DNA from: Ignavibacteria bacterium
GTDB taxonomy: Bacteria; Bacteroidota; Ignavibacteria; Tepidaquicellales; Tepidaquicellaceae
DNA length: 64,000 bases
NCBI GenBank assembly: GCA_036508135.1
Contig: DATCHW010000016.1
Location: 2,500 to 66,499 of the forward strand
Direction of reading: 5' to 3'
Under the pieces are notes generated by a model. It saw nothing but the letters and a program-made list of their open reading frames with translations. It was not told the DNA's origin and ran no database searches. Made by a program: the position numbers and the translations under genes. Below, piece after piece: positions 9,744-27,396 of this stretch (position 1 is its first letter; each line of letters opens with the position of its first letter).

Positions 9744-9747
9744 ATTT

Positions 9748-12700
9748 ATGAGCAGTGAAAAATTAGATGATATTATAAAAGACTTTCAAATCGGAAAGTT
9801 TACGCAATTATTCCGTGAAAAAAACAGAGACTTTAAGCCGAGAGAAGAAAACCTCGAGAGATATAATGATGATTTATTTAAAGAAGGTTTGAAACTCGGA
9901 GAAATAATATTTTCAGATACGAACAAATTAATCGTCTGCGGGTTCAAAGTGAAACGGGAACTCTCCGAAAGAAGTTGTAAAAAACTTCAGTATGATAAAT
10001 CCAGAAAAATTTTAAAAGAAGAAAGATACGATTCCGGTATATTTATTTTTTATGATTCTGATGGGAACTTTCGATTCAGTTTAGTATATGCAATTTATCT
10101 TGGGAATAGAAGAGACTGGAACAATTTCAGAAGGTTCACCTATTATGTAAATAAAAAATTAACAAATAAAACATTTTTAAAACAGATAGGCAGTTGTGAT
10201 TTTAGCTCAAACGATAAAATAAAAGGATCTTTTTCTATTACAGCAGTCACAGACCTATTTTACAAAGAATTTTTTGATGAGCATTTCACTAAAATGGTTG
10301 ACTCGCTAATAGAAAAATTCGACCTTGAAGATGAGAAAGCACGAGATTTTGTATTACTTTTTTGTATCAGAATAATATTTATCGGTTTTATTCAAAAGCG
10401 TAAATGGATTGGTAAAGATGAACTTTTTATACTGAATTTTTTTAAAGAATACGAAATAAAATTTTACAGTACCGATAAATTTTACGAGAAGTGGTTAACA
10501 CCTTTGTTTTTCGAGGCATTAAATAATCCTCCCGGACGAAAAGTAGCTTATCAAAACAATGAATTTTCAAAGGAAACTGAGGAATCGCTTCAATTGGCAC
10601 CTTATCTAAATGGAGGTTTATTCAAAAAGAAAACCAGTTTTGATGATGAAAGTTATTACTTGCCCGATAAAGACATAAAAAACTTTTTTGAATTCTTATT
10701 CTCACATAGTTTCACGATTGAAGAAAATTCTTTTGAAGATGAAGACCTACAGTTAAACCCGGAATTTCTCGGAATTATTTTCGAAAGACTGGTAAATAAA
10801 GAAAACGGAGCAGTTTATACTCCCCGGACAGAAGTAGATTTTATGTGCCGTTTAAGTCTTGTAAAATGGCTTGAAAAAAACACTTCGAAGAGCATTCAGA
10901 AAAACAACTTATATGAACTGTTTTTTCGTGAAATCGGAGATGGTAAAGATACTGATGACATTCAAAAGGAGGGAAGTTTTTCAAAGAAAGAAATTGAAGA
11001 AATTATTTCACTTCTTGAAAATATTTCAATATGTGACCCTGCAGTCGGTTCCGGTGCCTTTCTTGTGGGTATGTTATTGATTTTGGATGAAATAATTTTG
11101 AATCTAAAACAAAGAATCGGAGCAAAATATGACGATTCTTTTGAAAGAAAGAAAAATATTATTGCAAATTCTCTTTATGGTGTTGAAGTTCAGGAATGGG
11201 CTGTTTGGATTTGTCAATTAAGGCTTTGGATATCATTATTTATAGATGCTCCGGAAGATATGAAGGATTCTCAAACTGCAATTTTACCAAGCCTCGATTT
11301 TAAAGTAAGACAGGGAGACTCATTAGTACAAAGAATCGGAAGTAAAATGTTCCCTGTTACCGGACATGCTCAATTAACAAAATCTATTAAAGATAAAGTT
11401 ACAAAACTAAAGAATATTAAAGTTGATTATTTCTTAAATAAATCAGACTTTGGAGAATTGATTGTCAAACAAAATGAAAATAAACTTTTTATTGAAATTA
11501 TAAATGAAGAAATTTACGAAATAAAAGATACCCTGAAGAAAAAGAAAGGTAAAGAAAAAGTAGAAAAAATTAATCTCTTTCATTCCGATATATCAGAACA
11601 AGAAGTAATAGAATATAATAAAGAAGAAATATCGGAACTTGAAAATTTGTTAAATGAATTAGAAACTCAAAAAAGTCTTATCACTGAAAATAAACCTTTA
11701 ATTTGGAATATTGAATTTGCAGAGATATTTGTAGAAAAAAATGGTTTTGATCTAATCATCGGAAATCCACCTTATGTTCGCCATGAAGATATTGAAGATC
11801 CGACCGGAAAGATTAAAGATAAAAAAGAATATAAGAGTTTACTCGAAGAAATGGTAAGGATTGATTATCCCGACTATTTCAGACCGAAAATTAAAATTAA
11901 TGCGAAATCGGATTTATATATTTACTTTTATCTCCGCTCATTAAAGTTATTAAATAAAAATGGATATCACTGCTTTATATGTTCAAATTCCTGGCTTGAT
12001 GTAGGATATGGAGCATGGTTTCAAAAATTTCTACTTGATAAAGCTCCAATTGATTTTATTATAGATAATCATTCTAAACGAAGTTTTGAATCTGCTGATA
12101 TCAATACAATAATCAGTTTTATAAATGCACCTCAAAAGCAAGTTACACAAAATCATTATATTAAATTTGTAGCATTTAAAAAACCCTTTGAAGAAACAAT
12201 CTTTACGGAATATTTACTAGATATTGATAATACAAAATCAATTAATAATGGTGAGAATTATAGAGTATATCCGATAACTAATAATGATTTATTATCTTCG
12301 GGAACTGAGTATGATTCAGATGAACAAGAGAAACTTAATATGGGGAAATTTATAGGTGACAAATGGGGTGGAAAATATTTAAGAGCACCATTTTTTATGC
12401 AAAAATATTTTAAATCAGAAAATTTAATAAAATTCAACGATCTAATAGATATTAAATATGGACTCAAGACAGGAAAAGTAAAATTTTTCTATATTAAGGA
12501 TGAAATAATAAAGGAATTTAATATTGAAAAAGAGTTCTATCATCCAATTATAACTACGTCGCAAGACTTAGATACTTTATTTGTTGAATCGAATGAGTTT
12601 TTGTTTAATTCAAATCTTTCAAAATTCAAATTAAAGGGAACAGGGGCATTAGAATATATAAAATATGGAGAGAATAACAATATGAGTATTGGATCATCGG

Positions 12701-13251
12701 TTGAGTCCCACAGACCCTATTGGTATTCTTTGAGTTTCGAAGTTGTTGATATATTATTTTTTAGGTTTTGGGATAAAAGATTCTGGTCACCAATAACAAA
12801 ATACAAAACAACTTGTTCTGATAATTTTTGTTATGGAAATTTCAAAACAAATGAATGGTCGGGTAAATTAATTGTAAACAGTACATTTTATTTTCTTCAA
12901 ATTGAATTATTCGGTAGAGATAATCAAGGACAAGGTGTTTTAACAACATATATGGAATTTGATTATCCCTTTATTAGAATGCCAATATTAAATAATGATG
13001 ATGAAAGATATAAAAGCATTTTATATAATTTAGATAAGAGAAAAATAAAAACGCTTTTTGAAGAATGCGGCATTAATCCCAAATCCGAAATTCCAATAGA
13101 AGAACAAGAGCCAAATCCATTACCTGATAGAGCAGAGCTTGATAAAATAGTATTCGATGCGTTAGAATTGACTGAAGAGGAGAGAAAAGAAGTCTATCGG
13201 GCAGTTTGCCGTCTTGTATGGAACAGAATCAGCAAAGCAAAAAGTGTATGA
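9748..13251 (+). CDS. Eco57I-type (gamma-class) N6-adenine DNA methyltransferase with a large specificity region
   Basis: 1167 aa. AVYTPRTEV, DPAVGSGAFLV (SAM motif I) and IIGNPPYVR (motif IV). The C-terminal ~480 aa contains YGLKTGKVKFFYI, which resembles TaqI-like target-recognition domains. Confidence 0.85.
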   Translation: MSSEKLDDIIKDFQIGKFTQLFREKNRDFKPREENLERYNDDLFKEGLKLGEIIFSDTNKLIVCGFKVKRELSERSCKKLQYDKSRKILKEERYDSGIFIFYDSDGNFRFSLVYAIYLGNRRDWNNFRRFTYYVNKKLTNKTFLKQIGSCDFSSNDKIKGSFSITAVTDLFYKEFFDEHFTKMVDSLIEKFDLEDEKARDFVLLFCIRIIFIGFIQKRKWIGKDELFILNFFKEYEIKFYSTDKFYEKWLTPLFFEALNNPPGRKVAYQNNEFSKETEESLQLAPYLNGGLFKKKTSFDDESYYLPDKDIKNFFEFLFSHSFTIEENSFEDEDLQLNPEFLGIIFERLVNKENGAVYTPRTEVDFMCRLSLVKWLEKNTSKSIQKNNLYELFFREIGDGKDTDDIQKEGSFSKKEIEEIISLLENISICDPAVGSGAFLVGMLLILDEIILNLKQRIGAKYDDSFERKKNIIANSLYGVEVQEWAVWICQLRLWISLFIDAPEDMKDSQTAILPSLDFKVRQGDSLVQRIGSKMFPVTGHAQLTKSIKDKVTKLKNIKVDYFLNKSDFGELIVKQNENKLFIEIINEEIYEIKDTLKKKKGKEKVEKINLFHSDISEQEVIEYNKEEISELENLLNELETQKSLITENKPLIWNIEFAEIFVEKNGFDLIIGNPPYVRHEDIEDPTGKIKDKKEYKSLLEEMVRIDYPDYFRPKIKINAKSDLYIYFYLRSLKLLNKNGYHCFICSNSWLDVGYGAWFQKFLLDKAPIDFIIDNHSKRSFESADINTIISFINAPQKQVTQNHYIKFVAFKKPFEETIFTEYLLDIDNTKSINNGENYRVYPITNNDLLSSGTEYDSDEQEKLNMGKFIGDKWGGKYLRAPFFMQKYFKSENLIKFNDLIDIKYGLKTGKVKFFYIKDEIIKEFNIEKEFYHPIITTSQDLDTLFVESNEFLFNSNLSKFKLKGTGALEYIKYGENNNMSIGSSVESHRPYWYSLSFEVVDILFFRFWDKRFWSPITKYKTTCSDNFCYGNFKTNEWSGKLIVNSTFYFLQIELFGRDNQGQGVLTTYMEFDYPFIRMPILNNDDERYKSILYNLDKRKIKTLFEECGINPKSEIPIEEQEPNPLPDRAELDKIVFDALELTEEERKEVYRAVCRLVWNRISKAKSV

Positions 13252-13962: not shown

Positions 13963-16602
13963 CTACCAGCTTTTTGAAAACGTTGCCCTGAATATTATAT
14001 CATTATTATCACCTTCTGCGAATACTTTTTCCCTGAAAAAATTCTTTATAACACTAACCGATAAGTTCCCGATATTGTAAACAGGAATGGTTGAATTGAA
14101 AGATAAAACCGTATTCGTATTTAATCCTGAAGTTCTTTGATAGCTGATCGATAATGTATTATTCCATTTATCGAACAATGTGAGGCTGCTGCTTAAATCA
14201 TAAGAATATATATTTGCCGGGGCAAGTGAATCCGTCAGAACTGAGTTGATAGAAGTAATATTAACTCCTGCCGAGATACTAAATGGTGATTCAAATGAAA
14301 CGGTTTCATTTAGAAGAAAATTATATATAGTATAATCGCCCAACCTCTTTTGTGATTGGTTAGTCTGTCTTGATAATGAAGCCATAGTACCAAGAGTATA
14401 TTTATTTACAGGAATATTGATACCTGTGGTTAAAGAAAACGCGGAAGCGAAGTTATCGATTTTTAATGAATCAATTACTGCGTCATTTTTTTCCGAGTAC
14501 GGTGTGTAATTTACTATCAGATAAGGCAGTTTATCAAGGAACATACTTAAAGCAAAATCATATCTGTTTTTATCCATTGAAGTTTTTTCACTTCTCAGTC
14601 TTTCGGTTGATAATTTCAGGTTAATCTTCTTATCGGCAAAATATTGCTCTATTCCGATAGTGAATCCTTTTACTCCATTAGTAAAAGACGGCGCTCCCAG
14701 AGAAGAATATCCAAGCCCGATATATTTATATCCGCCTTTAAGTTTTGTATTTGATTCGGGAATATTGACAACTGATTCAATATTATACATTAAATCAAAA
14801 TGCGTTCCCATTTTAACGCTTAACAGATTTTTGGCAAAACCGGGAATGTCATCGCTTACTAAATCCGGCGCTCTTAGGTCGTCAGTAATAACCGAGCCTG
14901 AAAACTCTCCTTTTACCACAACCCTGTCTTTAAATAATCTCAGCTTTCCATCTGTACCTAGTATCACATTTTCCATAGGCGACATACTTGAAGTTACTTT
15001 CAGTGTATCATTCAAATCCAGCGAATTAATATTATCTTTTGCCTTCATAAATGTAATATGAAAATGAGAATTATCTTTCCCGCCAATTCCAATTTTTCCT
15101 GCAAAAAGTTGTCGCGCAAAGTTTACGGAATCAATTGCATCAAGATTTTTTATTCCTGAAACGGCTAAATATAATAAACCGGTTGTATATTCAAGGTCGA
15201 GACCTGTTACTTTTGTTCCGTTCAATATATATTTTGAATAACTCGGATATGTTTCGCCGATACCAAGCGTATTAAAACTTGAAAAAAACTTTAATAATCC
15301 GCTTACGCTATTCCCTGCCTTATCTTTTGCGTTATTTATTTCTTCCTGAGTTTTATCTTTTAATTTTTGTTCTATTTCGGTTTTCTTTTCTTCAATTTTT
15401 TGTGTTACAATTTCCTTAAGTTTTGCCGGGTCAAACAGCAAAGCAAAACTGTTGATGTTTTGCTTGAATTCCTGCTGCTGCGTATCGTAATAAAAATTAA
15501 ACGTGAAAGGCAGATCGTATATGGAAACTGTCGGGTCAAACTGAACGCTTAATAAATTTCTCGGAATTTGCGAACCGGTTTTTTGTCTGTCCGTAAATTT
15601 ACCCGATACATTATAGCTTCCCGAGAATTTAAAAGGAGATTTTCCTTGAATTTCACTGAAATCAATTAACGGCGGTGAGATTAAATTCAAATTCTTGGTT
15701 TCACTCAATCCACTAAAACCGCCGATGCCCGATTTTTGTTTTATAAGGTCGGGTAAATTAATGAATGTTTTCTTGTCCTCTTGAAATGTTTTTATGTTTT
15801 TTTCATTAATATCTTTGGACGATAGTGTTCTTCCGTTATACGAGAACTCCCTCACTTCACTTTCTGATAGCAGGCTTCCGTTCAGATATGTTTTCACTCT
15901 CCATGCATATCTCCTTCCGTTTTCCAATGGTAAAGCCGCAATAGGATATTGAAAAAGTCCTGTCATTATATTTTTCTTGAAGTATATATATGGATTAGCC
16001 GTCATCGCATAGTAAGCAGTCTGCCTTTCAAGTATTTCGACAATATTGATTTCGTATGTAACATTATTTCCCGGAGTGATAGGTGATGGCGGCATCCAGT
16101 TAAAAATTGGGAGCATCGTTTTTATTTCGTCCTTATCCTGGGGCGAAATTAATTCACCTTTCACTGTCTGTAATACTTCGAAATCATTACAATACTCTGA
16201 AAGTAAAGTATTGGTTCCTTTGGAATAAACATATATGCAGATATTATATCTTCCTGACGGAAGCGAGCCGGTGGTTTTGAAATTATCATCTACTTCAGTT
16301 GAATATTTTTTCAAATCAATCGGGGAAATAGAAGCTGCGTTTATTAATTTCGGTACTAAAGTAGTCTGCAGTGTGAAACTCGAAGAGGTTGCCTCGACAA
16401 GCATTGTATTGTTTTTTTTGACAATCGCTTTAAGGTAGATATCAATAGCACTGCCTGAATTTGTCAAGCTCACTTTCCAGAGGTCTGAGGCGTTGAACCG
16501 GAACGGCGGCGGCGGATGTAATATAGCCGTAACTTGGGAGTACGATATATTTGAAAAGAACAATAATGCAAACAGAGTTAAAACTATTTTATAGGTTTTC
16601 AT
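13963..16602 (-). CDS. Secreted protein: shared N-terminal module plus putative outer-membrane beta-barrel
   Basis: The long ORF is 13963..16629; the likely start is MKTYKIV.. (signal peptide). The N-terminus is a diverged copy of the module found in the two upstream genes (..LISPQDKDEI...FNW...TYEINIVE...FQYP...GRRYAWRVK). The C-terminal ~600 aa is strand-rich and ends ..ATFSKSW. Confidence 0.75.
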   Translation of the reverse strand: MKTYKIVLTLFALLFFSNISYSQVTAILHPPPPFRFNASDLWKVSLTNSGSAIDIYLKAIVKKNNTMLVEATSSSFTLQTTLVPKLINAASISPIDLKKYSTEVDDNFKTTGSLPSGRYNICIYVYSKGTNTLLSEYCNDFEVLQTVKGELISPQDKDEIKTMLPIFNWMPPSPITPGNNVTYEINIVEILERQTAYYAMTANPYIYFKKNIMTGLFQYPIAALPLENGRRYAWRVKTYLNGSLLSESEVREFSYNGRTLSSKDINEKNIKTFQEDKKTFINLPDLIKQKSGIGGFSGLSETKNLNLISPPLIDFSEIQGKSPFKFSGSYNVSGKFTDRQKTGSQIPRNLLSVQFDPTVSIYDLPFTFNFYYDTQQQEFKQNINSFALLFDPAKLKEIVTQKIEEKKTEIEQKLKDKTQEEINNAKDKAGNSVSGLLKFFSSFNTLGIGETYPSYSKYILNGTKVTGLDLEYTTGLLYLAVSGIKNLDAIDSVNFARQLFAGKIGIGGKDNSHFHITFMKAKDNINSLDLNDTLKVTSSMSPMENVILGTDGKLRLFKDRVVVKGEFSGSVITDDLRAPDLVSDDIPGFAKNLLSVKMGTHFDLMYNIESVVNIPESNTKLKGGYKYIGLGYSSLGAPSFTNGVKGFTIGIEQYFADKKINLKLSTERLRSEKTSMDKNRYDFALSMFLDKLPYLIVNYTPYSEKNDAVIDSLKIDNFASAFSLTTGINIPVNKYTLGTMASLSRQTNQSQKRLGDYTIYNFLLNETVSFESPFSISAGVNITSINSVLTDSLAPANIYSYDLSSSLTLFDKWNNTLSISYQRTSGLNTNTVLSFNSTIPVYNIGNLSVSVIKNFFREKVFAEGDNNDIIFRATFSKSW

Positions 16603-16640
16603 TTTTAAAATTTTAATTATTAATATCATTTATATTGTTT

Positions 16641-18014
16641 CTATTTTACCAAAACAGGCCAAACTACTTGAACTGTGTCTTTACAGATTACTCTCCCATC
16701 CTTATTAAGCCATTCATAAATTACTACAATCGGTTCTGATGAGGAATTTTCAAAAGTAATACTTCCTAAATCGGTTAAGCCAATAGGAATATCGCCTGAA
16801 TTGTTTGTCCACTTTATTCCTGATGAACCCGGAGGGAATTTAGATGGTGTTCGTTTCCAGCCATCCGGTACATCGGAGGCTGATATGATTTTAGTATTTG
16901 CAGTAATTGTAAAACTTACAGGTCTATTTGCAGGTAAACCGCTATAATTATTGGTGATGCTAATGTCATAGTCTTTAATATCTATAGAGATTCTCATTTT
17001 CTCGTCGCCTTTGTTGAGGGCTGTATCTCCCTCTCTTGTGCCGGGTGAGATTTTCATTTTCTCGTTGCCTTTGTTGAGGGCTGTATCTCCCTCTCTTGTG
17101 CCGGGTGAGATTTTTCTTTTCTCGTCGCCTTTATTGAGAGCTGTATCTCCCTCTCTTGTTCCGGGGGAGATTTTCCTTTTCTCGTCTCCTTTATTATTTT
17201 GCACAATATTAAATTTGAAATCCTTACATGTAATTTCCTGCGCGATTAAAAAATTTCCCCATCTGTCAAATATACTCATCGTGCTCTGTAAATCTCCGAT
17301 TTTAACCAGCCATACATATTTCTTTCCGGTTTCAAATTTCGGAGCAGACGCGGGATACTGGAAAAGTGTCGGCGAAATTCCTTCCTTTTCGAAGAATGCT
17401 TTATTTCTTTTAATTGCTTCATCGGGAGATTGACTCTCTTTTAATTCCACGATTCTTAACGTATATGTCTGGTTTGAGCCCGGTGCTTTCGTATGCATCC
17501 ACGTAAATACGGGATTATCAATTCTCAATTCCTCTTCATCTCTCGGAGAAATAAGCTGAGGTGCATCTCCGCCTGTTATTTTCTGGTCGAAGCAGTCTTC
17601 TCCTGCAACTGAGTTATTTGTATATCTGAGTTCACAGCATATTTTATAATCTCCCGGAGGCGCCCCCCCTGTATTCATAAAAGATTGTTTATACTTAGGG
17701 TCTTTTGCCAGATAACTCACGTCGGGTATTTTCGGTAAATCGGATACCTTGAAATTAGTTGTGCCTTTTTTAACCACGAATGTCATCGTCTGACCTGTAG
17801 CTATCAGCTCGCTGTTTTCGTTGTTTGTCATTGAGCCGTAAAGGTAAGCTGTGAAAGTTTCACCGGTGTTTATAATTGTTGCGTTCCATAAATCAGCCGC
17901 TCTCAATTGATTTAACGGAGCACGTTTCATTCTGAATGTAACCTGAGCAAATAATGAACCCGAAGTTGATACGAGAATAATTACTGCGATAAATAATTTA
18001 ATATATTTTTTCAT
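16641..18014 (-). CDS. Secreted protein, paralogue of the N-terminus of the 1686-aa giant, with a 20-aa tandem-repeat linker
   Basis: 457 aa with a signal peptide. The first ~250 aa are nearly identical to 18061..23121. Then (GDEKRKISPGTREGDTALNK) x3.5. The C-terminal domain resembles one module of the giant protein. Confidence 0.85.
   Translation of the reverse strand: MKKYIKLFIAVIILVSTSGSLFAQVTFRMKRAPLNQLRAADLWNATIINTGETFTAYLYGSMTNNENSELIATGQTMTFVVKKGTTNFKVSDLPKIPDVSYLAKDPKYKQSFMNTGGAPPGDYKICCELRYTNNSVAGEDCFDQKITGGDAPQLISPRDEEELRIDNPVFTWMHTKAPGSNQTYTLRIVELKESQSPDEAIKRNKAFFEKEGISPTLFQYPASAPKFETGKKYVWLVKIGDLQSTMSIFDRWGNFLIAQEITCKDFKFNIVQNNKGDEKRKISPGTREGDTALNKGDEKRKISPGTREGDTALNKGNEKMKISPGTREGDTALNKGDEKMRISIDIKDYDISITNNYSGLPANRPVSFTITANTKIISASDVPDGWKRTPSKFPPGSSGIKWTNNSGDIPIGLTDLGSITFENSSSEPIVVIYEWLNKDGRVICKDTVQVVWPVLVK
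16986..17195. repeat. 60-bp tandem repeat, ~3.5 copies, in-frame inside 16641..18014
   Basis: Consecutive 60-nt sequence lines 16981-17200 are in perfect register (..ctcgtcgcctttgttgagggctgtatctccctctcttgtgccgggtgaga..). Confidence 0.95.
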
Positions 18015-18060
18015 AATCTTAATTTTGTTTTTCTCTGTTTAGACTCATAGTTTCAAATAT

Positions 18061-21000
18061 TTAATTCCCGAATCTGAAATTATCAACAATAAGGTTACCG
18101 GTATTATGCGTGACTTCAATCTTATCTATAGCAGTCGGTAAATTTATTCCGAAATAGGGATTAGCGTCTCCCGGTTGCACATAAGTATATATGCAATTAC
18201 CGGAAGTAACTTTAATTGTATAATTCCCAACCATCGGATAATACAGACCCATATCAAATCCCGCTTTTTTATACATTCCGGAGGGGAATACAATTGTAAT
18301 GTATTGACCTGCAGAACTAACAATATATTGATTCCAATAAGACGTGCAATTGGAGAAAGTTAATCCGTTCCTTGTCCAACCTGAAAGAGGAACAGGACTA
18401 CCGGAACTTGAAATTGGACTGCCGTCATCATTAGTGGAAAAATCAATCAGTTGTGATGAAGTTAATGTATTCATGAACGATATCGCGTCATACAGACGGT
18501 GATTTGAAGACGAATCACATCCTGTAGGATTCGGCGGTTTAATTACATCGATGTATGATGTACAACTATCACAAACTTTTCCGTTACATGAAACTTTCAG
18601 ATTAATTGAATATGTCCCTAATTCATTTAATTGAAAATTGTTAATTACTTGTGTATTAAATGATGTTTGTGTGCCTGTTATTGGTGATGTAATTTTCCAA
18701 TCGTAAGAAGCTTTGCAATTCTCTTTACCAATACAATTGTATGTTTGACTGACAAAATCCAAAGATACTCCTTCGATAATACCGGGGTGTTTATTCCCGC
18801 AAGGCAGGAAGGTTTCAATCTCTTCAATTATATTTCCATTAAATCCGTGAATTGTAAATCCTTTTTTATCTTCACTCCATCCACCGCAATCGCAGTCAGG
18901 CTTTCCGACTGTACGGAAATTGAAACCGCATGAATCACAAATTCTATCGCCGCAGTAAGCATAAATTGTAAATCTGTATTTACTTTCCGGTGGTGCCGTA
19001 AATGTAACAGGCAATGTTGTGGTTGTACCGGAATTGATAATACTGCCTGAACCTAAATCAATTATATTCCACTTGTAATTAGTTATACATCCGGGTTTGC
19101 TGCAAAGATAAGAAGATGCATTATATGTAATGTTTGAACCAGCAGCCATCGGACCATAAATCATTTTTTCAAAACAACCTATCTTCATTTTATTTTCGAT
19201 TCCGGTCGGATCTTTATAACCTATATTACTGTGTGGACTCCATCTATCACCGCAACCGCAATCATTTTGGATAACATTAATTCTAACCCAACATGAATCA
19301 CATACTCTTCCGCCGCAATATGCTTTAAATGATAAAATATAAGAGCCGGGTGTATTAAACATATAATTAAATGGATTACCGGTTCCTGTAACATGAATCG
19401 GGATTACTCCTGAACCACCTGTTAAATCCCATGAATATTCAGCGATACAGTTTTCAGTATTACATATATATGCAGGGAAAGTTAAAGTTAATTGAGAGTT
19501 TAAATCAACCGGAAACTTTGCGTCGCATAATACTGGATGCTGTAATCTATCGTTAACCGATACTTGTATTTCATTGCTTTCCCATTTACCGCAATCGCAG
19601 TCCGGCTTTCCGATTGTACTGAAATTAAAACCGCATGAATCGCATACTTTATCGCCGCAGTAAGCATAAATTGTAAATCTATATTTACTTTCCGGCGGTG
19701 CAGTAAATGTAACAGGTAATGTTGTTGTCGTACCTGAGTTAACAATACTGCCTGAACCCAAATCAATTATATTCCACTTGTAATTAGCTATACAATCGGG
19801 TTTGTTGCAAACATAAGAATTTGCATTATAATTAATAACTGAACCAACAGCCATCGGACCATAAATCATTTTTTCAAAACATCCTATCTTTAATTGATTT
19901 TCTTTTCCGTCAGGATTTATGTATCCAATATTGCTGTGTGGACTCCATTTATCACCGCAATCACATGTATCATGGTATATTATTATAGAATCGCAATTCG
20001 GCAGTCTAAAGCATAACGTGTCATAGCATGTATCTGTTTTTACAGGAGTGTATAGGAACATTTCTGTGTATATGCAACAGGACCCGGTCTGACTGGTTGA
20101 GAACTGACCGCTAACCGATATTGTACTGTTTGCAGAAATACTTCCGGAGTTATTACCAAGGAATGTACCGCAGGAGTTTGACAAAACGTAATTACCGATT
20201 GTCGAAGTAAGATTGGTTAAACTAATTATATAACCGTATTTTTTAACACCCGTTGGATCCTTTATGCACCAGAGTGAATCGAGTTTAGTCTCCAAACAGC
20301 CTTGTCCGATGTTGCAATTCGGCATAGTTTTACAAATTTCAGTGCTATAGCAGCACCAGTCATAATATTGCTGACCGTCTATTAATCTGTGTTCATATAA
20401 TGAAATATTAAAACAGAATTGAGAACCGGGATTTACTCCGCTGATTATCAACGTCTGTTGAGGCGAAATCATATTCGGAGCAATTGTAACATTACTGAAA
20501 TTGGCAGGAGAAAATATTAACGATGAAGGCGATAAAGGATTAAACTGGAAGCCTGTAGTTGTATGGGAAGAATTATTTTTTATATGAAACGTATATTGAA
20601 ATGTTCCATTTGGAAGACATATCAAAGAATCATTTATTAATTGCACACAGAGTGTTGGCGGAGGCGGTGGGATACACCGGGTTATCAGAGTATCTACGCA
20701 TTTTACGGAATCTTTCCCCACCCATTCTACAAGAATATGTTGAGTTGTAGATGTATAATTTGTTAAACAGAAATTAGCAATGTTTGATAAATTTCCTGTT
20801 GGGATAAAATTATTCGGATAATTTGCCGGATTATTTATAAGATTAATTTTATTATCCGGATTAGTGTTTGTCGAATACCAATTGTCTGATATATTTGTGT
20901 TCCAGGTACTAAAAGCTACACCTGTTTCAAGTGTTGTTAAATTTATTTGTGTGAAATAATTTCCCGAATAATTATTATGTAAATTCAAACTGTAGCAACA

Positions 21001-23121
21001 GTTCAACGGATCTCCAGTAATATCTGCACTGACCTCATTACATACACAAGATGGAATTTTTACACAAAGAGTATCATAGCACCAGCAGCAGCCATCGGGA
21101 CTTGTGAATTTGAAAATAATGCAGACTGATGAGTCAGGCGTAGCTCCGCTTATTGTAAACGCAGGCTGATTCGTTGTTTGCCCGGGAGTTACAGACGTAG
21201 ATAATGTCAAAGGTGACGGAGAAACACTTATACCTGATGGTACAGTATTAACTACTTCTATTTTATTTATTGGGAAAGAAGAGTTATTAGTGAACGAATA
21301 ATGTAAATTATAATTATTACCGTTGCAAAGTAAAGTATCTTTACTAAATGTAACACAAGGTATATCGCAATTTAAAGTTATTGTATCAGAACAAACTATA
21401 CTATTATCATTTTTTATCCAGTTAACCACAACATGCTGCGGACTTGATAGTTTATTCATGCAAAAATTAAAGAATCCATTTTGCTGACCCGTAGGAATAC
21501 TGCCTGCCAATTTTTGTATCGTAAATTCCTGCGGAGTATTAACAGGGAAAAACCAGCCCGATGGACTTCCTAATTGGCAGCTGCCTGTAACAAATGTATT
21601 CGGTGATTGAGCTAAGAATTGTATTTTTGTAATATTTGCAGTATTAGATGGATGTGTAAGATTTAAACTCCAGCAGCAGTCTCCAATTGCACTGCGTACA
21701 GGGACAACTTTAAATGAGTCACAGATACTGCCGTGATCAGGCGGCGGTACGCAGTCTCCTGTATTCTTTATACATATATTATCATACCCGATTCTTTCAT
21801 TCTGATAGTTTTGTACATCAACCCTTAATCTCACTTTTGTAACATTGCTTAGGAGCGAATTCCAGTTAACCTCAGAACCCGGTGTCATTACCCAATGTCC
21901 ATCTGAATTGGAAGGCAAAGTGCCGTCTGAATTAAGATACTTGAGTGGAGCACAATAAGTATGCCAGCCATCACCAACTGAAATTATATTCCAGGTAACG
22001 AAAGTAGCAGCAAAACCACTTCCTTCAATTGCTATGTAGGGCTGCATAGTAAGCGGAGGACTTGAAAAAGAATCTGTCGTATAGTAATAATCATCTCCAT
22101 TATATATGTAATTAACATCAAAACATAATGAACCACAGCTATCAGTCATCAGATCTCCCCAGTTTCCGGTATAAGTACTATCAACATTGAAAAAATATGA
22201 TGAACCTGATTGATCTGTTGTTTCTATATATTGTCCGGGATGACCGCCCGTCGGTTTAATTGTCTTTAGCGCATTGTTCACTTGCCAGCCCCCGGGTGTT
22301 CCATCTTCAAAATCAGTGCAAAAAGGTGCCAGGGGAGACTTTTTAACAGGAAGTGTCTTTATACCCCACCTGTCAAATATACTTATATTGCTTTGCAAGT
22401 CACCGACCTTAACCATCCATGCATATTTCTTTCCTGCTTCAAATTTCGGAGCGGACGCAGGATATTGAAAAAGTGTCTGCGAAATTCCTTCCTTTTCAAA
22501 GAATACTGTATTTCTTTTCATTGCTTCATCGGGAGATTGATCTCCTCTTATTTCTACAATTTTTATAGTATATGTTTGATTTGAACCGGGAGCTTTTATA
22601 TGCATCCACGTAAATACAGGATTATCAATTCTTATTTCCTCTTCATCTCTCGGAGAAATTAGTTGAGGTGCATCTCCGCCTATAATTTTCTGGTCAAAGC
22701 AGTCTTCTCCTGCAACTGTATTATCCGTCCGGCGTAATTCGCAGCATATTTTATAATCTCCCGGAGGAGCTCCGCCCGTATTCATAAAAGATTGCTTATA
22801 CTTCGGGTCTTTCGCCAGATAACTCACATCGGGAATTTTCGGTAAATCTGATACTTTGAAATTAGTCGTGCCTTTTTTTACTTCGAAAGTCATTGTCTGA
22901 CCTGTAGCTATCAGCTCGCTGTTTTCGTTGTTTGTCAATGAACCGTAAAGGTAAGCCGTGAAAGTTTCTCCGGTATTTATAATAGTTGCGTTCCATAAAT
23001 CCGCTGATCTAAGCTGATTTAACGGAGCACGCTTCATTCTGAATGTAACCTGAGCAAATAATGAACCCGAAGTTGATACGAGAATTATTACTGCGATAAG
23101 ATATATAATAACTTTTTTCAT
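18061..23121 (-). CDS. Giant (1686 aa) secreted Cys-rich multidomain surface protein, unassigned family
   Basis: Signal peptide, then the shared ~250-aa N-module, then many ~110-130-aa Cys-framed modules (e.g. ..CCWSLNL.., ..CCYSLNL.., CDCG.KW..). No T9SS C-terminal domain. Confidence 0.9.
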   Translation of the reverse strand: MKKVIIYLIAVIILVSTSGSLFAQVTFRMKRAPLNQLRSADLWNATIINTGETFTAYLYGSLTNNENSELIATGQTMTFEVKKGTTNFKVSDLPKIPDVSYLAKDPKYKQSFMNTGGAPPGDYKICCELRRTDNTVAGEDCFDQKIIGGDAPQLISPRDEEEIRIDNPVFTWMHIKAPGSNQTYTIKIVEIRGDQSPDEAMKRNTVFFEKEGISQTLFQYPASAPKFEAGKKYAWMVKVGDLQSNISIFDRWGIKTLPVKKSPLAPFCTDFEDGTPGGWQVNNALKTIKPTGGHPGQYIETTDQSGSSYFFNVDSTYTGNWGDLMTDSCGSLCFDVNYIYNGDDYYYTTDSFSSPPLTMQPYIAIEGSGFAATFVTWNIISVGDGWHTYCAPLKYLNSDGTLPSNSDGHWVMTPGSEVNWNSLLSNVTKVRLRVDVQNYQNERIGYDNICIKNTGDCVPPPDHGSICDSFKVVPVRSAIGDCCWSLNLTHPSNTANITKIQFLAQSPNTFVTGSCQLGSPSGWFFPVNTPQEFTIQKLAGSIPTGQQNGFFNFCMNKLSSPQHVVVNWIKNDNSIVCSDTITLNCDIPCVTFSKDTLLCNGNNYNLHYSFTNNSSFPINKIEVVNTVPSGISVSPSPLTLSTSVTPGQTTNQPAFTISGATPDSSVCIIFKFTSPDGCCWCYDTLCVKIPSCVCNEVSADITGDPLNCCYSLNLHNNYSGNYFTQINLTTLETGVAFSTWNTNISDNWYSTNTNPDNKINLINNPANYPNNFIPTGNLSNIANFCLTNYTSTTQHILVEWVGKDSVKCVDTLITRCIPPPPPTLCVQLINDSLICLPNGTFQYTFHIKNNSSHTTTGFQFNPLSPSSLIFSPANFSNVTIAPNMISPQQTLIISGVNPGSQFCFNISLYEHRLIDGQQYYDWCCYSTEICKTMPNCNIGQGCLETKLDSLWCIKDPTGVKKYGYIISLTNLTSTIGNYVLSNSCGTFLGNNSGSISANSTISVSGQFSTSQTGSCCIYTEMFLYTPVKTDTCYDTLCFRLPNCDSIIIYHDTCDCGDKWSPHSNIGYINPDGKENQLKIGCFEKMIYGPMAVGSVINYNANSYVCNKPDCIANYKWNIIDLGSGSIVNSGTTTTLPVTFTAPPESKYRFTIYAYCGDKVCDSCGFNFSTIGKPDCDCGKWESNEIQVSVNDRLQHPVLCDAKFPVDLNSQLTLTFPAYICNTENCIAEYSWDLTGGSGVIPIHVTGTGNPFNYMFNTPGSYILSFKAYCGGRVCDSCWVRINVIQNDCGCGDRWSPHSNIGYKDPTGIENKMKIGCFEKMIYGPMAAGSNITYNASSYLCSKPGCITNYKWNIIDLGSGSIINSGTTTTLPVTFTAPPESKYRFTIYAYCGDRICDSCGFNFRTVGKPDCDCGGWSEDKKGFTIHGFNGNIIEEIETFLPCGNKHPGIIEGVSLDFVSQTYNCIGKENCKASYDWKITSPITGTQTSFNTQVINNFQLNELGTYSINLKVSCNGKVCDSCTSYIDVIKPPNPTGCDSSSNHRLYDAISFMNTLTSSQLIDFSTNDDGSPISSSGSPVPLSGWTRNGLTFSNCTSYWNQYIVSSAGQYITIVFPSGMYKKAGFDMGLYYPMVGNYTIKVTSGNCIYTYVQPGDANPYFGINLPTAIDKIEVTHNTGNLIVDNFRFGN
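18870..19968. repeat. Intragenic duplication: two ~390-bp copies 705 bp apart inside the giant gene
   Basis: 18870-19262 and 19578-19968 align base for base with few changes. They encode CGCGDRWSPHSNIGYKDP.. and CDCGDKWSPHSNIGYINP.. through ..YRFTIYAYCGD(R/K)(I/V)CDSCGFNF. Confidence 0.9.
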
Positions 23122-23136
23122 GTAAGTATTTTTTTA

Positions 23137-23544
23137 TTATTTTAATATTTCACAAACGAACGATAGTGTTTTAACCGGTTCTTTTTCATCATTTGATGTT
23201 ACCGTTATTGTTTTACTGTTTATGCCTTCCCGTCCTTGTGTATTAAAAGTAACTTTTATTTCACCAGATTCACCGGGTGCAAATTCTTTTTTATCTCTCA
23301 GGGTTGCTCCCGTGCATCCGCAAGACGGGTGAACGGATTCTATAATTAAGTTAGCTGTTCCTGTATTTTTGAATTGAAAAAGATGCTCAAGCGTTTCTCC
23401 CTGCTGTACTTTTCCGAAATCAAATTGCATTTCATTAAATGTTAAAATCGCTTCCTTTTCAGTAGGTGTCACTTTTGCGCTGATTTTTATTGCTGCAAAA
23501 CAGATAAAAGTAAGCAGCAGCATACTATAAATAATTTTTTTCAT
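23137..23544 (-). CDS. DUF1573 domain-containing secreted protein
   Basis: 135 aa with a signal peptide. The HPSCGCTGA motif and surrounding Ig-like pattern are typical of DUF1573. Confidence 0.8.
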   Translation of the reverse strand: MKKIIYSMLLLTFICFAAIKISAKVTPTEKEAILTFNEMQFDFGKVQQGETLEHLFQFKNTGTANLIIESVHPSCGCTGATLRDKKEFAPGESGEIKVTFNTQGREGINSKTITVTSNDEKEPVKTLSFVCEILK

Positions 23545-23596
23545 TTTAATTTTTTATTTTTATTTTGTAAAGTATATTTTTATTAGAATTGGATTT

Positions 23597-23842
23597 ACTC
23601 AACTATCTTCCCGTTTTTTATCCGAATTGAACTTTTATTTTTCAGATTTTCCAGAGACTTTCTTAACACTTCAAGTTTTTCCTTCGGAATATTAAGGTCG
23701 TTTTCAAGGTCGGCGATTGCTTTTCGACTGTATCGTATTCTTTTGTTTCTGAGCTGTCAGAATCTTTTTGTATTATTATTAGCGGAGCTGAATTATGGTT
23801 TTGTTTTTTTATAATTCCCTTTAATCTATTCCAAATATTCAT
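23597..23842 (-). pseudogene. Frameshifted copy of the 82-aa gene 27037..27285
   Basis: The N-terminus MNIWNRLKGIIKKQNHNSAPLIIIQKDS is identical. The C-terminal half (..AIADLENDLNIPKEKLEVLRKSLENLKNKSSIRIKNGKIVE*) is readable only in another frame after small indels. Confidence 0.7.
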
Positions 23843-23906
23843 TGTGTGCAAATTTATTTAACACAAATTAGGACAATATAAACGTCACGGCAAGTATGAA
23901 TCAATA

Positions 23907-23955
23907 AACGGTATGAATTATTAAGTTAACGGTAGTGATTTCTAAACTAACGGTA
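23907..23955 (-). promoter_or_regulatory. Three direct ACCGTT repeats with 21-bp phasing (candidate LytTR operator), copy B
   Basis: AACGGTA on the plus strand starts at 23907, 23928 and 23949. On the coding strand it reads TACCGTT(A/T)A. It lies upstream of the pseudogene/DUF1573 operon. Confidence 0.55.
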
Positions 23956-24035: not shown

Positions 24036-24074
24036 TCAATAAAATAAACCCCTTGTGATATTCTTCAAGGGGTT
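24036..24074 (-). terminator. Rho-independent terminator of the 27285-24107 operon
   Basis: On the minus strand: AACCCCTTG-N10-CAAGGGGTT followed by TATTTTATT. Confidence 0.7.
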
Positions 24075-24106
24075 TTCAAAGTTAAGATTATGAATAATAA
24101 TAATTT

Positions 24107-24799
24107 TTATTTCACCAACACAAGTTTTTTAGTTATTACAGATTTAATATCACCGTCGGTCATAAGTCTATAGAAATACGCGCCGCTTGAAATTCCCGAA
24201 GCATCAAATTGCACGGTATAATATCCTGCTGTTTTGAATTCTTTCACGAGAGTCCTGATTTCACGTCCGGACATATCAAAGATGGTTATTTTCACATTAG
24301 CATCTTTTGGTATATCAAAATCAATCTTTGTGACAGGATTAAACGGATTCGGATAATTCTGGCTCAAATTAAATTTAGCAGGAATTCCGATTTCTACGGT
24401 TCCGCTCAGATTATGAAATTCAAAGTTCCCGTTATTATCTATTTGTTTGAGTCTGTAAGAATACTTTCCTGTTTGAAGGTTTCTATCTTCAAACGAATAG
24501 ATTGACGGAGTATTGACCGTTCCTCTTCCCGGCAGAAAACCAACTTTCGCAAAATTACCCGTAAGAGTTTTTCTTTCGATATCAAAGCCGGAGTTATTTT
24601 GTTCCGATGCAGTCACCCAATTTAGTTTGATATTTTGACCGCTTACAATTGATGTAAAAGAAGCAAGTTCAACGGGAAGCGGCGAATCAATTATTTCCAC
24701 GGAGAAAGCACCTCCGCCATTACCGCCTGTATATTGGGCTGTTAGCACTACCGGCAATGCCAGCATTAGCAGCGCTAAGTATATTGTTATCTTTTTCAT
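24107..24799 (-). CDS. T9SS C-terminal-sorting-domain secreted protein
   Basis: Likely start MKKITIYLALL.. (signal peptide); the long ORF extends to 24883. C-terminus ..LSQNYPNPFNPVTKIDFDIP...YFYRL...LVLVK. Confidence 0.8.
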   Translation of the reverse strand: MKKITIYLALLMLALPVVLTAQYTGGNGGGAFSVEIIDSPLPVELASFTSIVSGQNIKLNWVTASEQNNSGFDIERKTLTGNFAKVGFLPGRGTVNTPSIYSFEDRNLQTGKYSYRLKQIDNNGNFEFHNLSGTVEIGIPAKFNLSQNYPNPFNPVTKIDFDIPKDANVKITIFDMSGREIRTLVKEFKTAGYYTVQFDASGISSGAYFYRLMTDGDIKSVITKKLVLVK

Positions 24800-24849
24800 A
24801 TTTTTATTTTGATTTTTAATTTTAAAATTGTTTTCATTGATAACCCCGG

Positions 24850-26868
24850 CTAAGGTGCTAAACGAACTCCACGACCGCCACAATTACTGCTGTTACTATT
24901 GTCGGCGTTTTCCGCAATGGTGCGGTCGGAAACCTGCAAGAGCGTAGTATTACTTTGGTTCCAAGCGCCGCCACGCCAACCTGTGCCTGCTGCTTGCGTA
25001 ACACCGGTTATTCCCAAATAAATCGTATTTGCCGTTGTGGTTGTGCCATTTCCATTTATCCCCGGCCAGTAATTTACGTTTGCATCACCATTCTTATTCA
25101 ATGTGCCATCTCCGTTTAATCCGGTAAAACTACGTCCCGCAACATCACCTACAGTTACAGAACGATCCCATAGATTGCCGGTCATCTCCATTATACCATA
25201 ATACGTGGCGCCTGATGTTACGCGGGTAGATGTACCTGTTGCAAATACCCCAACCCGCACAGGTCCATTAATACTACCGGCGGAAGGAATAGTTGCAACA
25301 TATGCAGCATTGCCACAGATTGCTATGCCGTTAACAACATTTGCTTGATCAGAATATAAGCGGTGTGTAGGCATAACAGACACCGTAAAATGTGTTGCAT
25401 CTGTAATTCCTGTAACAACTGTACCCAGAGCAAAGGCGGCAGCGGTTTCGGCGCCGGCAATACCAGTGACGCTTACGGGCATTCCGATTCCGAGCCCCGT
25501 TGTGCTGATAACTGTAATTATGTTTCCTCCGGTAGAAGTAGCACCCGCATCAGAAATATAATTCGAACTATTAAGGTAATTAGTAGCTATAACTTCGTTG
25601 AATGCGCCGCTGTTGCTTAATGTATATGGGCTGCCAGCAATACCAGTTGTGCCCCAGGCATATTCGTTGGCTACTGCTGATACAGGTCCCCGGCAGGATT
25701 TTTCAAATTCCAGCTCAGTCATCGGGCGCAAGCCGCTCCAATCGAAATACGCCGCCATATCTGACCAGCTTATATCGTTACATGCTACAGACGAGTCGGC
25801 GGTAACATAACTACCTACCGCGCTGCCTGAAATACCATACCGAAAGCCACTGCTGGTGAATTTCCGTAACGTCGCCTGAGTTTGTGTCAGACTATTCAAA
25901 AAATCCACATACTCTTGTTGGCTTATTTCGTATTTCATGCAATAAAATGCAGAGTAACCGGTGGGGAATCCCGCTGAGAGAGTAGCGGTCGTTGTTCCTG
26001 TTAAATCCAAGCTGCCTCTGGCGGATAAATTAGATGCACTCGAACTTGAACTATTACCCTGAATTGTTGGTGCCGTAGATGTGATTTGAAACGGTATAGT
26101 AACCCCTGATATGCTATTAGCTGCTGTAAAGCTGAAATTTTCTGTTCCTCCGCTACCCACATAAAAATTCCCTTGCGGAACATACACCATCTCAACTGCA
26201 TAAACCCGTATATCCAAAGAAGCACCGTCGGCTACTCCGTTTACTCCATATTCCCAGCGGAGTTGTGTGTTAGTAAATGTGTTTGTGCCGGTACCATCGG
26301 CATCCCTATAAATAAATGCACCGGTTCCATCGGTTGCCGGAGTTATGGTTCTGCCTGAGATTGGGGAAAGCCCAGTTGTGTTAATCTTAGCGTGTTCCCA
26401 GATTGCAGAGCCGGTAATAACATTCGCTGCACCGGATAAAGGAGTAGTTGGAGTTGCAGACACTGTAAAAGTTGTTGTATTTATAATTGCTGTAACAACT
26501 GTACCCGCAGCAAATGTACCTGTACCTCCCGATTTGCTTACTGGCATTCCAACTCTAAGCCCCGAAGTACTAGTAACAGTAATTGTAGTACCTGAAGAAG
26601 TAGCGCCCGCAGCTGAAGTATAATTTCCTCTAACCTTGTACTTCACAAACACCCATGCGGCATCATAGTTATTGGGAGCAGAAGAGGTACGCCAGGAGTT
26701 TTCCCAGGTGAGGTCGAACTGAACTAGCGTGAAATGACTGCCAGTGTTTTCACCTGTTAAACTAACACTTCCAGGAGTGACACTAATGTTATTTGAAAAA
26801 GCACTGTATGTCAACAGCATAAACATAAAGACAAATAAGATTTGCCTTTGCAGAGATTTAAAAGACAT
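24850..26868 (-). CDS. FGE-sulfatase/SUMF1 (GldJ/GldK-like) domain protein with two inserted Thr/Gly/Ala-rich repeats
   Basis: Likely start MSFKSLQRQILFVF.. (signal peptide); the long ORF extends to 26991. SUMF1-type motifs YCMKYEISQQEY, RPMTELEFEKSCRG, YYGIMEMTGNLWD, RGGAW. Visibly higher G+C than its neighbours. Confidence 0.75.
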   Translation of the reverse strand: MSFKSLQRQILFVFMFMLLTYSAFSNNISVTPGSVSLTGENTGSHFTLVQFDLTWENSWRTSSAPNNYDAAWVFVKYKVRGNYTSAAGATSSGTTITVTSTSGLRVGMPVSKSGGTGTFAAGTVVTAIINTTTFTVSATPTTPLSGAANVITGSAIWEHAKINTTGLSPISGRTITPATDGTGAFIYRDADGTGTNTFTNTQLRWEYGVNGVADGASLDIRVYAVEMVYVPQGNFYVGSGGTENFSFTAANSISGVTIPFQITSTAPTIQGNSSSSSASNLSARGSLDLTGTTTATLSAGFPTGYSAFYCMKYEISQQEYVDFLNSLTQTQATLRKFTSSGFRYGISGSAVGSYVTADSSVACNDISWSDMAAYFDWSGLRPMTELEFEKSCRGPVSAVANEYAWGTTGIAGSPYTLSNSGAFNEVIATNYLNSSNYISDAGATSTGGNIITVISTTGLGIGMPVSVTGIAGAETAAAFALGTVVTGITDATHFTVSVMPTHRLYSDQANVVNGIAICGNAAYVATIPSAGSINGPVRVGVFATGTSTRVTSGATYYGIMEMTGNLWDRSVTVGDVAGRSFTGLNGDGTLNKNGDANVNYWPGINGNGTTTTANTIYLGITGVTQAAGTGWRGGAWNQSNTTLLQVSDRTIAENADNSNSSNCGGRGVRLAP

Positions 26869-27036
26869 TACAAAGTCCCGTTGAAAAGAACAGGGATTTT
26901 GGGCTGAGTGCTCCGTAAAGGGTAAGAAGAAAGAAAGAACATTTAATAAGCTCTTCCGAATCTTTAACAGAACATTTTTGAAATTTTTCATTTGATTTAT
27001 TTTTATTTGACGAAATATATTTTATTAGAATTTGAT

Positions 27037-27285: not shown

Positions 27286-27347
27286 TGTGTAAATTTATTT
27301 GACACAAATTAGGACAATATAAACGCCGCGGCAAGTATGAATCAGTA

Positions 27348-27396
27348 AACGGTATGAATTATTAAGTTAACGGTAGTGATTTCCAAATTAACGGTA
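27348..27396 (-). promoter_or_regulatory. Three direct ACCGTT repeats with 21-bp phasing (candidate LytTR operator), copy A
   Basis: AACGGTA starts at 27348, 27369 and 27390. On the coding strand they are followed by TTG-N20-TAATTTG and then the ATG at 27285. Confidence 0.55.

Follow-up and report, generated by a model that had tools for sequence, protein, structure and literature searches.

A large outer-membrane barrel and its handle-tagged partner proteins in Ignavibacteria: a possible display or secretion module

What joins three secreted proteins that are encoded in one operon, begin with the same unassigned N-terminal module and continue in different ways? The question is raised by a 64,000-nt stretch of DNA from an Ignavibacteria bacterium (assembly GCA_036508135.1, contig DATCHW010000016.1, positions 2,500–66,499; hereafter the window, with a GC content of ~30–40%). 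On its minus strand lie, in order and all co-directional, the genes of a 135-residue DUF1573 protein (23137–23544), a giant of 1686 residues (18061–23121), a 457-residue protein (16641–18014) and an 888-residue protein (13963–16629). The first-pass annotation of the window had placed the four open reading frames (ORFs) at these positions with gaps of less than 50 nt; the measured gaps are 15, 46 and 11 nt. Those homologues that bear names all come from metagenome-assembled genomes (MAGs) of Ignavibacteria/Ignavibacteriota, which assigns the window to this lineage. We read the operon as a dedicated outer-membrane display or secretion module, in which one large barrel (the 888-residue protein) would serve cargo (the giant and the 457-residue protein) tagged with the shared module, here called the handle, under a LytTR two-component switch. 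Our confidence in this reading is evenly balanced.

The same module of ~230 residues follows the signal peptide in the giant (residues 24–253; 22363–23052), the 457-residue protein (residues 24–253; 17256–17945) and the 888-residue protein (residues ~33–264; 15838–16533), in each case on the minus strand. Hidden Markov models (HMMs) of its two domains, A and B, match with E values of 1e-50 and 2e-42, 1e-51 and 1e-41, and 4e-47 and 6e-41, respectively. The giant and the 457-residue protein are identical at 224 of 253 positions (89%; residues 1–253), and their genes are ~89% identical in DNA over the stretch that begins with the start codon and runs as far as the DRWG motif, where the similarity ends abruptly. 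The 888-residue protein shares 31% identity with the giant over 239 residues (E = 5e-29). It had been proposed that one module is common to all three proteins, nearly identical in two and diverged in the third, and these figures bear this out. The motifs quoted for it coincide with the columns that are conserved when 14 modules, taken from six loci, are aligned. The glutamine directly after the signal peptide is invariant in this alignment (Q24 in the numbering of the 457-residue protein) and fits the Q-rule of signal peptidase I, for which a Q-value of 77% is given for Ignavibacterium album (PMC5837995); cleavage is therefore expected before Q24.

Domain A (residues ~24–147) contains conserved DLW and G-x-Y-x-I-C motifs and a second cysteine, and domain B (residues ~150–245) follows the pattern LISP...F.W...Y...VE...QYP...G..Y.W.V. 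The two act as separate units, since domain B occurs four times in a 617-residue protein of locus L002 and domain A is duplicated in homologue P0055. In AlphaFold2 models both are all-β sandwiches of the immunoglobulin (Ig)/fibronectin type III (FN3)-like kind. In the model of the 888-residue protein they have predicted local distance difference test (pLDDT) scores of ~80–90 and are predicted as complete sandwiches, with no missing strand apparent. The model of the 457-residue protein is poor (pLDDT 49.6) and its handle alone was usable; every Foldseek match to this model was a tandem Ig/FN3 pair (the C-terminal barrels of transglutaminase, the FN3 pairs of NCAM, and phage lambda J). No match to the module above threshold was found in Pfam, NCBIfam or PDB sequence/profile searches. 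DUF928 (PF06051) reached 13.4–13.6 bits in the window proteins against a gathering cutoff of 26. Among 45 family members that were scanned, it matched 11 (best E = 1e-10), in domain B only and at profile positions ~12–95 of 184, and Ig_Rha78A_N matched domain B in nine (best E = 4e-20). The module thus stays outside the named families, as had been stated, and appears to be an unnamed tandem Ig/FN3-like unit whose domain B is probably a remote relative of DUF928 and Ig_Rha78A_N.

The C-terminal part of the 888-residue protein had been taken for an outer-membrane β-barrel, and it is predicted as one (residues ~333–888; 13966–15633, minus strand). The AlphaFold2 model, built with 32 homologues, has a mean pLDDT of 76 and a predicted template-modelling score (pTM) of 0.74, with most barrel blocks at 80–90. 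It comprises the barrel-type module (residues 33–264), a helix (271–286), a disordered linker (290–329) and strands (333–887), of which DSSP assigns 26 as long. A helical insertion (401–450) follows strand 4, presumably on the periplasmic side and in a plug-like position. The signal peptide, the even number of predicted strands and the C-terminal aromatic residue agree with generic criteria for outer-membrane β-barrels. Foldseek with this model returned outer-membrane barrels only, with a probability of 1.0. The best match was MtrB (6r2q_B; E = 1.4e-8, template-modelling (TM) score 0.34/0.45), the ushers FimD and PapC took ranks 2–5, 7, 10 and 11 (TM-scores 0.22–0.37), and further matches included SlpA (8agd, 7zgx), Occ porins and TonB-dependent transporters, XusA–XusB among them. 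The protein ends in ...FSKSW and the family consensus in ...SKSW; within the barrel, conservation, including that of polar residues, is densest over the first half and its loops. The protein has no Pfam or NCBIfam match at E ≤ 1 and no PDB sequence match. Its ORF opens with MILIIKILKMKTYK... at 16603–16629. Because the homologues begin at the position of the second methionine, the true start is probably M10, which would give a protein of 879 residues and a gap of 38 nt to the 457-residue gene.

How widely the parts occur together was assessed from the module family. With the module profile as query, a word-indexed homologue search retrieved just 17 proteins; the family came into view when 1.84 billion cluster representatives (50%-identity clusters) were searched exhaustively with the profile. 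In that search E ≤ 1e-3 was reached by 5510 clusters, E ≤ 1e-10 by 3127 and E ≤ 1e-30 by 858. These proteins have 260–3400 residues and nearly always carry the module at the N-terminus (residues ~1–260), and module–barrel fusions make up 16 of the top 144 representatives. The variable regions of the 45 scanned members carry PKD, GEVED, SdrD_B, Laminin_G_3, fn3 or CarboxypepD_reg domains, all of them domains of surface proteins, or RCC1 domains.

Loci were collected from both sides of the pair. The barrel-centred sample was drawn from five loci from contig look-ups, 13 loci from GTDB genomes, three barrel-only variants and two distant cargo cases. Where the flanks were usable, one or two co-directional module genes adjoin the barrel in 18 of 19 loci, the exception being L020. 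A metagenome scan that used cargo-type modules only gave 59 cargo-centred loci. The barrel adjoins the cargo in 33 of these, and 25 show no barrel, but there the contig or locus ends within 3.5 kb of the cargo genes. Informative cargo-centred loci therefore contain the barrel in 33 of 34 cases (L060 is the sole exception), and the synteny on which the first-pass reading depended holds elsewhere. Two distinct systems (L007 and L014), each with a barrel to itself, are present in a single MAG. Within a genome, barrel-type and cargo-type modules share only ~30% identity, yet either type is 70–80% conserved from one genome to another, so the barrel–cargo pairing is old and has been maintained.

Barrel homologues without an N-terminal module are still paired with module-bearing cargo (L021, L022, L023, L024, L067, L068, L071, L073, L074, L078 and L082; examples are P0211 from Chlorobi CHB2, P0214 and the Caldithrix locus L024), and 4-nt gaps to the cargo gene are frequent. 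Since these module-less barrels stay paired, the constant partnership is that of the cargo handle with the barrel and not of one handle with another; the handle on the barrel itself was added in Ignavibacteria. The idea that the module is a docking handle linking exposed domains to a barrel anchor accordingly survives in part: docking of the cargo handle to the barrel would fit all of the data, but a handle-to-handle link is not constant.

The three proteins had also been said to lack the sorting domain of the type IX secretion system (T9SS). No such domain (Por_Secre_tail or CHU_C) was found in the giant, the 457-residue or the 888-residue protein, even at E ≤ 1, and the neighbouring ORF 24107–24883 was positive, which confirms the claim. 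Nor does the T9SS tail figure in the family listing for the 45 scanned members, although the same genomes encode many T9SS-tagged proteins.

Control of the operon by a LytTR system, as proposed in the first-pass annotation, has strong independent support from phased boxes and recurrent adjacency of the regulator, as far as sequence can indicate. A response regulator with REC and LytTR domains (30664–31398, minus strand; Pfam Response_reg 4e-20, LytTR 2e-19) and a sensor histidine kinase (27697–30663, minus strand; Reg_prop propellers, Y_Y_Y and LytS-type His_kinase in Pfam) lie upstream of the operon and are separated from it by an FGE-sulfatase/T9SS gene. Orthologues of the regulator, the kinase or both immediately precede the operon in L013, L018, L028, L033, L038, L044, L047, L051, L061, L063, L064 and L069, the kinase being found in L018 (E = 7e-290) and in L013, L038, L047, L051, L061, L063 and L064. 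The regulator/kinase pair is ~6 kb upstream in L065 and convergently adjacent in L020.

Two sets of three CCGTT boxes with 21-nt spacing occur in the window, both on the minus strand. Copy 1 (27348–27394) precedes a small ORF and the FGE-sulfatase/T9SS gene. Copy 2 (23907–23953; ACCGTTAGT, ACCGTTAAC and ACCGTTTAT at exactly 21-nt spacing) lies directly upstream of the operon promoter within the 562-nt region upstream of DUF1573, where a TAnnTTTG-like −7 element and then a small ORF follow. The two sets are nearly identical in sequence (box pattern CCGTT(A/C)ACTT), and a 14-nt repeat first noticed in the promoter region is part of these phased boxes. The pattern CCGTT-N16-CCGTT has five matches in the window versus 0.05 expected, and four of the five make up the two sets. 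The boxes are classed as LytTR-type because 9-bp direct repeats with 12-bp spacers are a LytTR hallmark and the core resembles the AlgR consensus CCGTTCGTC; the 12-bp spacer is typical of LytTR repeats (PMC4064291). A search for phased boxes across 1.17 Mb of related loci located them in 13 further loci (L013, L016, L018, L025, L027, L028, L033, L044, L047, L051, L054, L060 and L069), on the strand of the operon and shortly before its first gene; where a locus includes the kinase, they come directly after it.

The −7 element (23863–23870, minus strand; TAATTTGT), which we take to belong to the TAnnTTTG consensus of the Bacteroidetes type, is a conserved block in the promoter alignment, and L013, L016 and L018 have the exact TAnnTTTG. 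An intact small ORF of 82 residues (27037–27285, minus strand) follows the copy-1 boxes, and L013, L016 and L018 likewise have a homologous small ORF after their boxes. The first gene after the operon promoter is a frameshifted second copy (23595–23842, minus strand), a 62-residue ORF with an out-of-frame tail ...ENLKNKSSIRIKNGKIVE, which matches the intact copy and the 80-residue ORF of L016. The small ORF has no signal peptide and no Pfam or NCBIfam family match. The box promoter and small ORF are thus duplicated in the window, at 27037–27394 with the ORF intact and at 23595–23953 with the ORF frameshifted. The arrangement is like that of the LytTR systems AlgZ/AlgR, AgrC/AgrA and ComD/ComE in its REC + LytTR regulator, its LytS-type kinase and its 9-bp direct repeats, which are separated by 12-bp spacers and stand immediately before a promoter, with a core CCGTT(A/C)AC that resembles the AlgR site (PMC4064291). 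It differs from them in the large periplasmic propeller/Y_Y_Y domain of the sensor, in having three boxes instead of two, these being predicted sites, and in that the first gene after the boxes encodes an 82-residue protein without a leader peptide.

The DUF1573 protein consists of a signal peptide and one Ig-like domain, in which a CGC motif lies. It matches PF07610 (E = 1e-29; 102.5 bits against a gathering cutoff of 26.1) and a HYDIN/VesB-like Ig domain (2.5e-19); PDB sequence/profile searches gave no match. The HYDIN/ASH-type Ig fold is a member of the PapD-like clan. The gene is found in the equivalent position in L001, L013, L016, L025, L027, L030 and L036, and the protein is an optional accessory. 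The CGC position is UGC in selenoprotein variants (PMC9312934), and the motif hints at redox chemistry. A general role as redox helper of cysteine-rich cargo was considered and rejected, as cysteine-rich giants occur in L004, L006 and L007 without DUF1573.

Put together, the proposed mechanism would run as follows. Sec would carry all of the proteins over the inner membrane and signal peptidase I would cut before the invariant Q24, after which the ~26-strand barrel would enter the outer membrane. The cognate barrel would recognize the tandem-Ig handle of the cargo (domains A and B), either on its own periplasmic side or inside its lumen. The handle would remain bound, serving to anchor or to plug, and the variable C-terminal region would pass through and be shown on the cell surface; the part displayed would be the cysteine-rich PKD-like array of the giant or the linker and small domain of the 457-residue protein. 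In Ignavibacteria the barrel would have gained a handle of its own in cis, which may occupy or extend the docking site. DUF1573 may act as an optional periplasmic helper. The response regulator would bind the three 9-bp boxes 21 nt apart and activate a promoter that would drive the small ORF and the DUF1573, giant, 457-residue and barrel genes. We favour a cognate transporter or anchor because a private barrel accompanies one to a few large, variable, adhesin-like proteins with a common N-terminal folded tag, and because the T9SS tag is absent in a T9SS-bearing lineage, several pairs may occur per genome and the gene junctions are tight or overlapping.

Such a system works most like two-partner secretion and the T9SS pairs of type-B C-terminal domain (CTD) and PorP, and its architecture recalls ushers, MtrAB and LptDE; none of the compared export and barrel systems is matched in the sequence or fold features that define it. 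In two-partner secretion (type Vb, TpsA/TpsB, FHA/FhaC) a dedicated barrel is likewise encoded beside large, variable, adhesin-like exoproteins with a conserved ~250-residue N-terminal domain after a Sec signal peptide, and several cognate pairs per genome are possible. Here, however, the barrel has ~26 strands instead of 16, no POTRA domains and no Omp85/ShlB match in Pfam, the handle is a tandem β-sandwich and not the TPS β-helix (the haemagglutination activity domain has no Pfam match in the cargo), and the Ignavibacteria barrel itself bears a handle. Type-B CTDs and PorP-like barrels form cargo–barrel pairs. An example from the same superphylum is SprB/SprF, where the gene of a giant surface adhesin lies next to its own small family of PorP/SprF-like barrels. 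The T9SS CTD has an Ig-like sandwich fold (PMC11285876) and serves as a tag that mediates attachment. In the present case the tag is N-terminal and double, not single and C-terminal, Por_Secre_tail and CHU_C do not match, the barrel is far larger with no PorP_SprF match and nothing ties the operon to the SprA translocon. MtrAB(C) and LptD/LptE also have ~26-strand barrels with the lumen filled by a partner so that polypeptide spans the outer membrane; the cargo here lacks the CXXCH haem motifs, there is no LptD/OstA match and the TM-score is 0.34/0.45. The 12-strand barrel of classical (type Va) autotransporters (PF03797) has no Pfam match, and our model has ~26 strands. A haem-binding, porin–cytochrome reading was rejected, as CXXCH is absent from the giant.

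Other explanations read the same evidence differently. The barrel could be a periplasmic tether like SLH-OmpM/SlpA, with the handle binding, for example, peptidoglycan, the barrel stapling the outer membrane and no translocation; the other handle proteins would then be periplasmic or wall-associated through the same tether. Soluble domains N-terminal to a barrel are usually periplasmic (LptD, BamA, ushers, OmpM), SlpA (SLH, coiled coil and large barrel) is among the Foldseek matches, an N-terminal domain common to barrel and non-barrel proteins is the SLH pattern and the barrel-only variants imply that a barrel can exist without a handle. Sharing of the SLH type nevertheless needs no tight one-to-one operon pairing, whereas here pairing is near-universal, with frequent 4-nt gaps and several pairs per genome, and it persists for handle-less barrels, which a common tether does not predict. 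PKD, GEVED, SdrD_B and Laminin_G domains are typical of extracellular proteins, and no similarity of the handle to known peptidoglycan-binding domains was found in Pfam, PDB-profile or Foldseek searches. On balance we consider a tether unlikely. More improbable in our judgement is fibre assembly of the usher kind, in which the barrel would polymerize handle subunits by Ig strand exchange with DUF1573 as the PapD-like chaperone and the giant as tip adhesin. As in FimD/PapC, which rank high in the Foldseek search, a large barrel is combined with N-terminal soluble β-sandwiches and a plug-like insertion, predicted after strand 4 at a periplasmic turn. One barrel is encoded with several Ig-tagged partners, and some loci add a small Ig-like periplasmic protein of the HYDIN/ASH type, a fold of the PapD-like clan. 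Against this, the 888-residue protein has no match to the usher barrel family (PF00577) in Pfam and no sequence homology to ushers, the TM-scores are low (0.22–0.37) and neither a Pfam match to PapD nor a two-domain PapD-like chaperone was found. The sole candidate is DUF1573, which has one domain only and does not occur in most loci. Many systems have one cargo gene only, the modelled handle domains are complete and the cargo is huge, multidomain and heterogeneous, not pilin-like.

An uptake complex resembling SusCD/XusAB, to which we give similarly little credence, would have the barrel import a solute or polymer that handle proteins capture at the surface while plugging the pore, the propeller/Y_Y_Y kinase inducing the set as in polysaccharide utilization loci (PULs). 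The kinase combines Reg_prop with Y_Y_Y, as do the sensors of PUL regulators in Bacteroides, TonB-dependent transporters including XusA–XusB are among the Foldseek matches, a ~26-strand barrel needs a plug that partner domains could supply, and the conserved polar residues are densest in the first barrel half and loops. However, Pfam gave no TonB-dependent plug or receptor match and there is no TonB box, the cargo proteins are not lipoproteins but have signal peptides of the signal peptidase I type with Q at +1, neither the operon nor its homologues include glycoside hydrolases or other catabolic genes, and the cargo domains are adhesin-like and not binders of one substrate class. It could finally be that there is no functional coupling, the module being a common Ig-type stalk and the adjacency a product of tandem duplication and domain shuffling. 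The 457-residue gene is indeed a recent duplicate of the 5′ end of the giant gene (89% in DNA), and domain B is also found as a generic repeat inside proteins such as the 617-residue protein of L002 and P0084. Yet the divergence of the module types within a genome and their conservation between genomes indicate an ancient, maintained pairing, the pairing is kept for module-less barrels, where paralogy cannot explain adjacency, and the barrel is present in all but one of the informative cargo loci. This last explanation is already disfavoured and we regard it as highly improbable.

Several points weigh against a dedicated display or secretion module. Contact between handle and barrel is something that we infer, the surface location of the cargo is read from its domain content only, and the handle might never leave the periplasm, in which case the cargo could perhaps be periplasmic too. 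The likeness of the modelled barrel to known translocons is generic (TM-scores ≤ 0.45). L060 (cargo) and L020 (barrel) have no partner within 10 kb, and DUF1573, being missing from most loci, is no core component. About two-thirds of the loci with enough upstream flank have no LytTR pair, so this regulation is subfamily-specific and would apply to roughly a third of the family; upstream regions differ in other loci such as L001 and L004.

A broader and distinctly more tentative proposal, which we would put well short of even, is that the barrel and tandem-Ig handle represent an undescribed export and anchoring pathway of Ignavibacteriota, Calditrichota and relatives, parallel to the T9SS, in which a private ~26-strand barrel translocates and retains very large adhesin-like proteins by an N-terminal folded handle in place of a C-terminal tag. 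The literature on DUF928, DUF1573 and Ignavibacteria barrels contained no description of a barrel–handle system that we could find, and we found neither a curated family nor a solved structure or paper that covers the handle or the barrel. Routes for protein transfer across the outer membrane are few and well catalogued, and each new one (T9SS, Slam, the type V subtypes) opened a field. Here, barrel and handle families without curated annotation bear the genetic signature of a cognate transporter–substrate pair, in a module family of at least 858 strong 50%-identity clusters and a host lineage that is hard to culture and abundant in sediments, soils and bioreactors. If the reading is correct, hundreds of hypothetical giant proteins would gain a role, these organisms would gain a portable N-terminal display tag with an inducible promoter (the LytTR boxes) and there would be a further case of a wide barrel filled by the Ig domains of a partner. 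If it is wrong, the conserved pairing still flags a complex worth solving.

The cargo proteins themselves differ in build. After the handle, the giant has a region of ~200 residues, five cysteine-containing units of ~115–135 residues, four PKD-like units of ~120 residues and an end of ~150 residues. It had been described as a cysteine-rich array, and with 80 cysteines the richness is real, but unit-wise BLAST comparison showed not one repeat type but several kinds of unit of ~115–135 residues with non-repeat ends. Two PKD-like cysteine-rich units (residues 1050–1175 and 1285–1412) are 83% identical, which indicates recent internal duplication of a block of two units. Orthologous giants adjoin the barrel in L001, L004, L006 and L007. 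Residues 255–455 of the giant, its C-terminal 150 residues and the C-terminal domain of the 457-residue protein have no Pfam or NCBIfam match above threshold.

The gene of the 457-residue protein is restricted to close relatives (P0040–P0044). It is a recent, lineage-specific copy of the 5′ end of the giant gene (signal peptide and handle), fused to a linker of ~85 residues and a β domain of ~115 residues that is weakly similar to the units of the giant. Tandem Repeats Finder located in the linker a 60-nt tandem repeat (16987–17192, minus strand; 3.4 copies, 92% matches) that encodes the charged 20-residue unit GDEKxKISPGTREGDTALNK. Its copy number varies among P0040–P0044 (437–477 residues), which suggests slippage-driven variation in the length of the stalk. 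Handle, disordered repeat linker and head domain together form the layout of an anchored, stalked surface protein, which agrees with the favoured model.

Further components were seen in other loci. A secreted protein of ~700–720 residues lies between the cargo and barrel genes in L053, L054, L057, L061, L064, L066 and L070 (and in L023). It is conserved in this one operon subfamily, has no Pfam match and is absent from the window; it may be a third component. In L005, of the barrel-first operon type, the barrel and a handle protein of ~400 residues are followed by a 710-residue Peptidase_C13 (legumain-like, clan CD) protein (14019–16151; E = 1e-6), possibly a processing enzyme; the gene order in L011 is similar. 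In the metagenome locus L030 (5007–20635) DUF1573 is followed by four consecutive handle-bearing cargo genes, and the barrel, if present, would lie past the 10-kb flank that was fetched.

Between the operon and the LytTR regulator, a 713-residue ORF with an FGE-sulfatase domain (24850–26991) and the 258-residue ORF with the T9SS sorting domain (24107–24883) overlap by 34 nt in different frames of the minus strand. The region 24107–26991 is probably a single T9SS cargo gene of ~960 residues split by a frameshift or sequencing error. Just downstream of these ORFs is a perfect 10-bp hairpin (24046–24075) with a T-run. Just upstream of the LytTR regulator are a class I methyltransferase (31769–32395) and a Fibrobacter succinogenes major paralogous domain protein (32488–33159; PF09603, E = 8.5e-49). 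On the plus strand a defence-like cluster (5209–13251) converges on the operon; it consists of a PLD-nuclease/SNF2-type helicase split over two ORFs (5209–7431 and 7428–8555), a YhcG/DUF1016 PDDEXK nuclease (8568–9743) and a 1167-residue restriction–modification methylase of the Eco57I/MmeI type (9748–13251).

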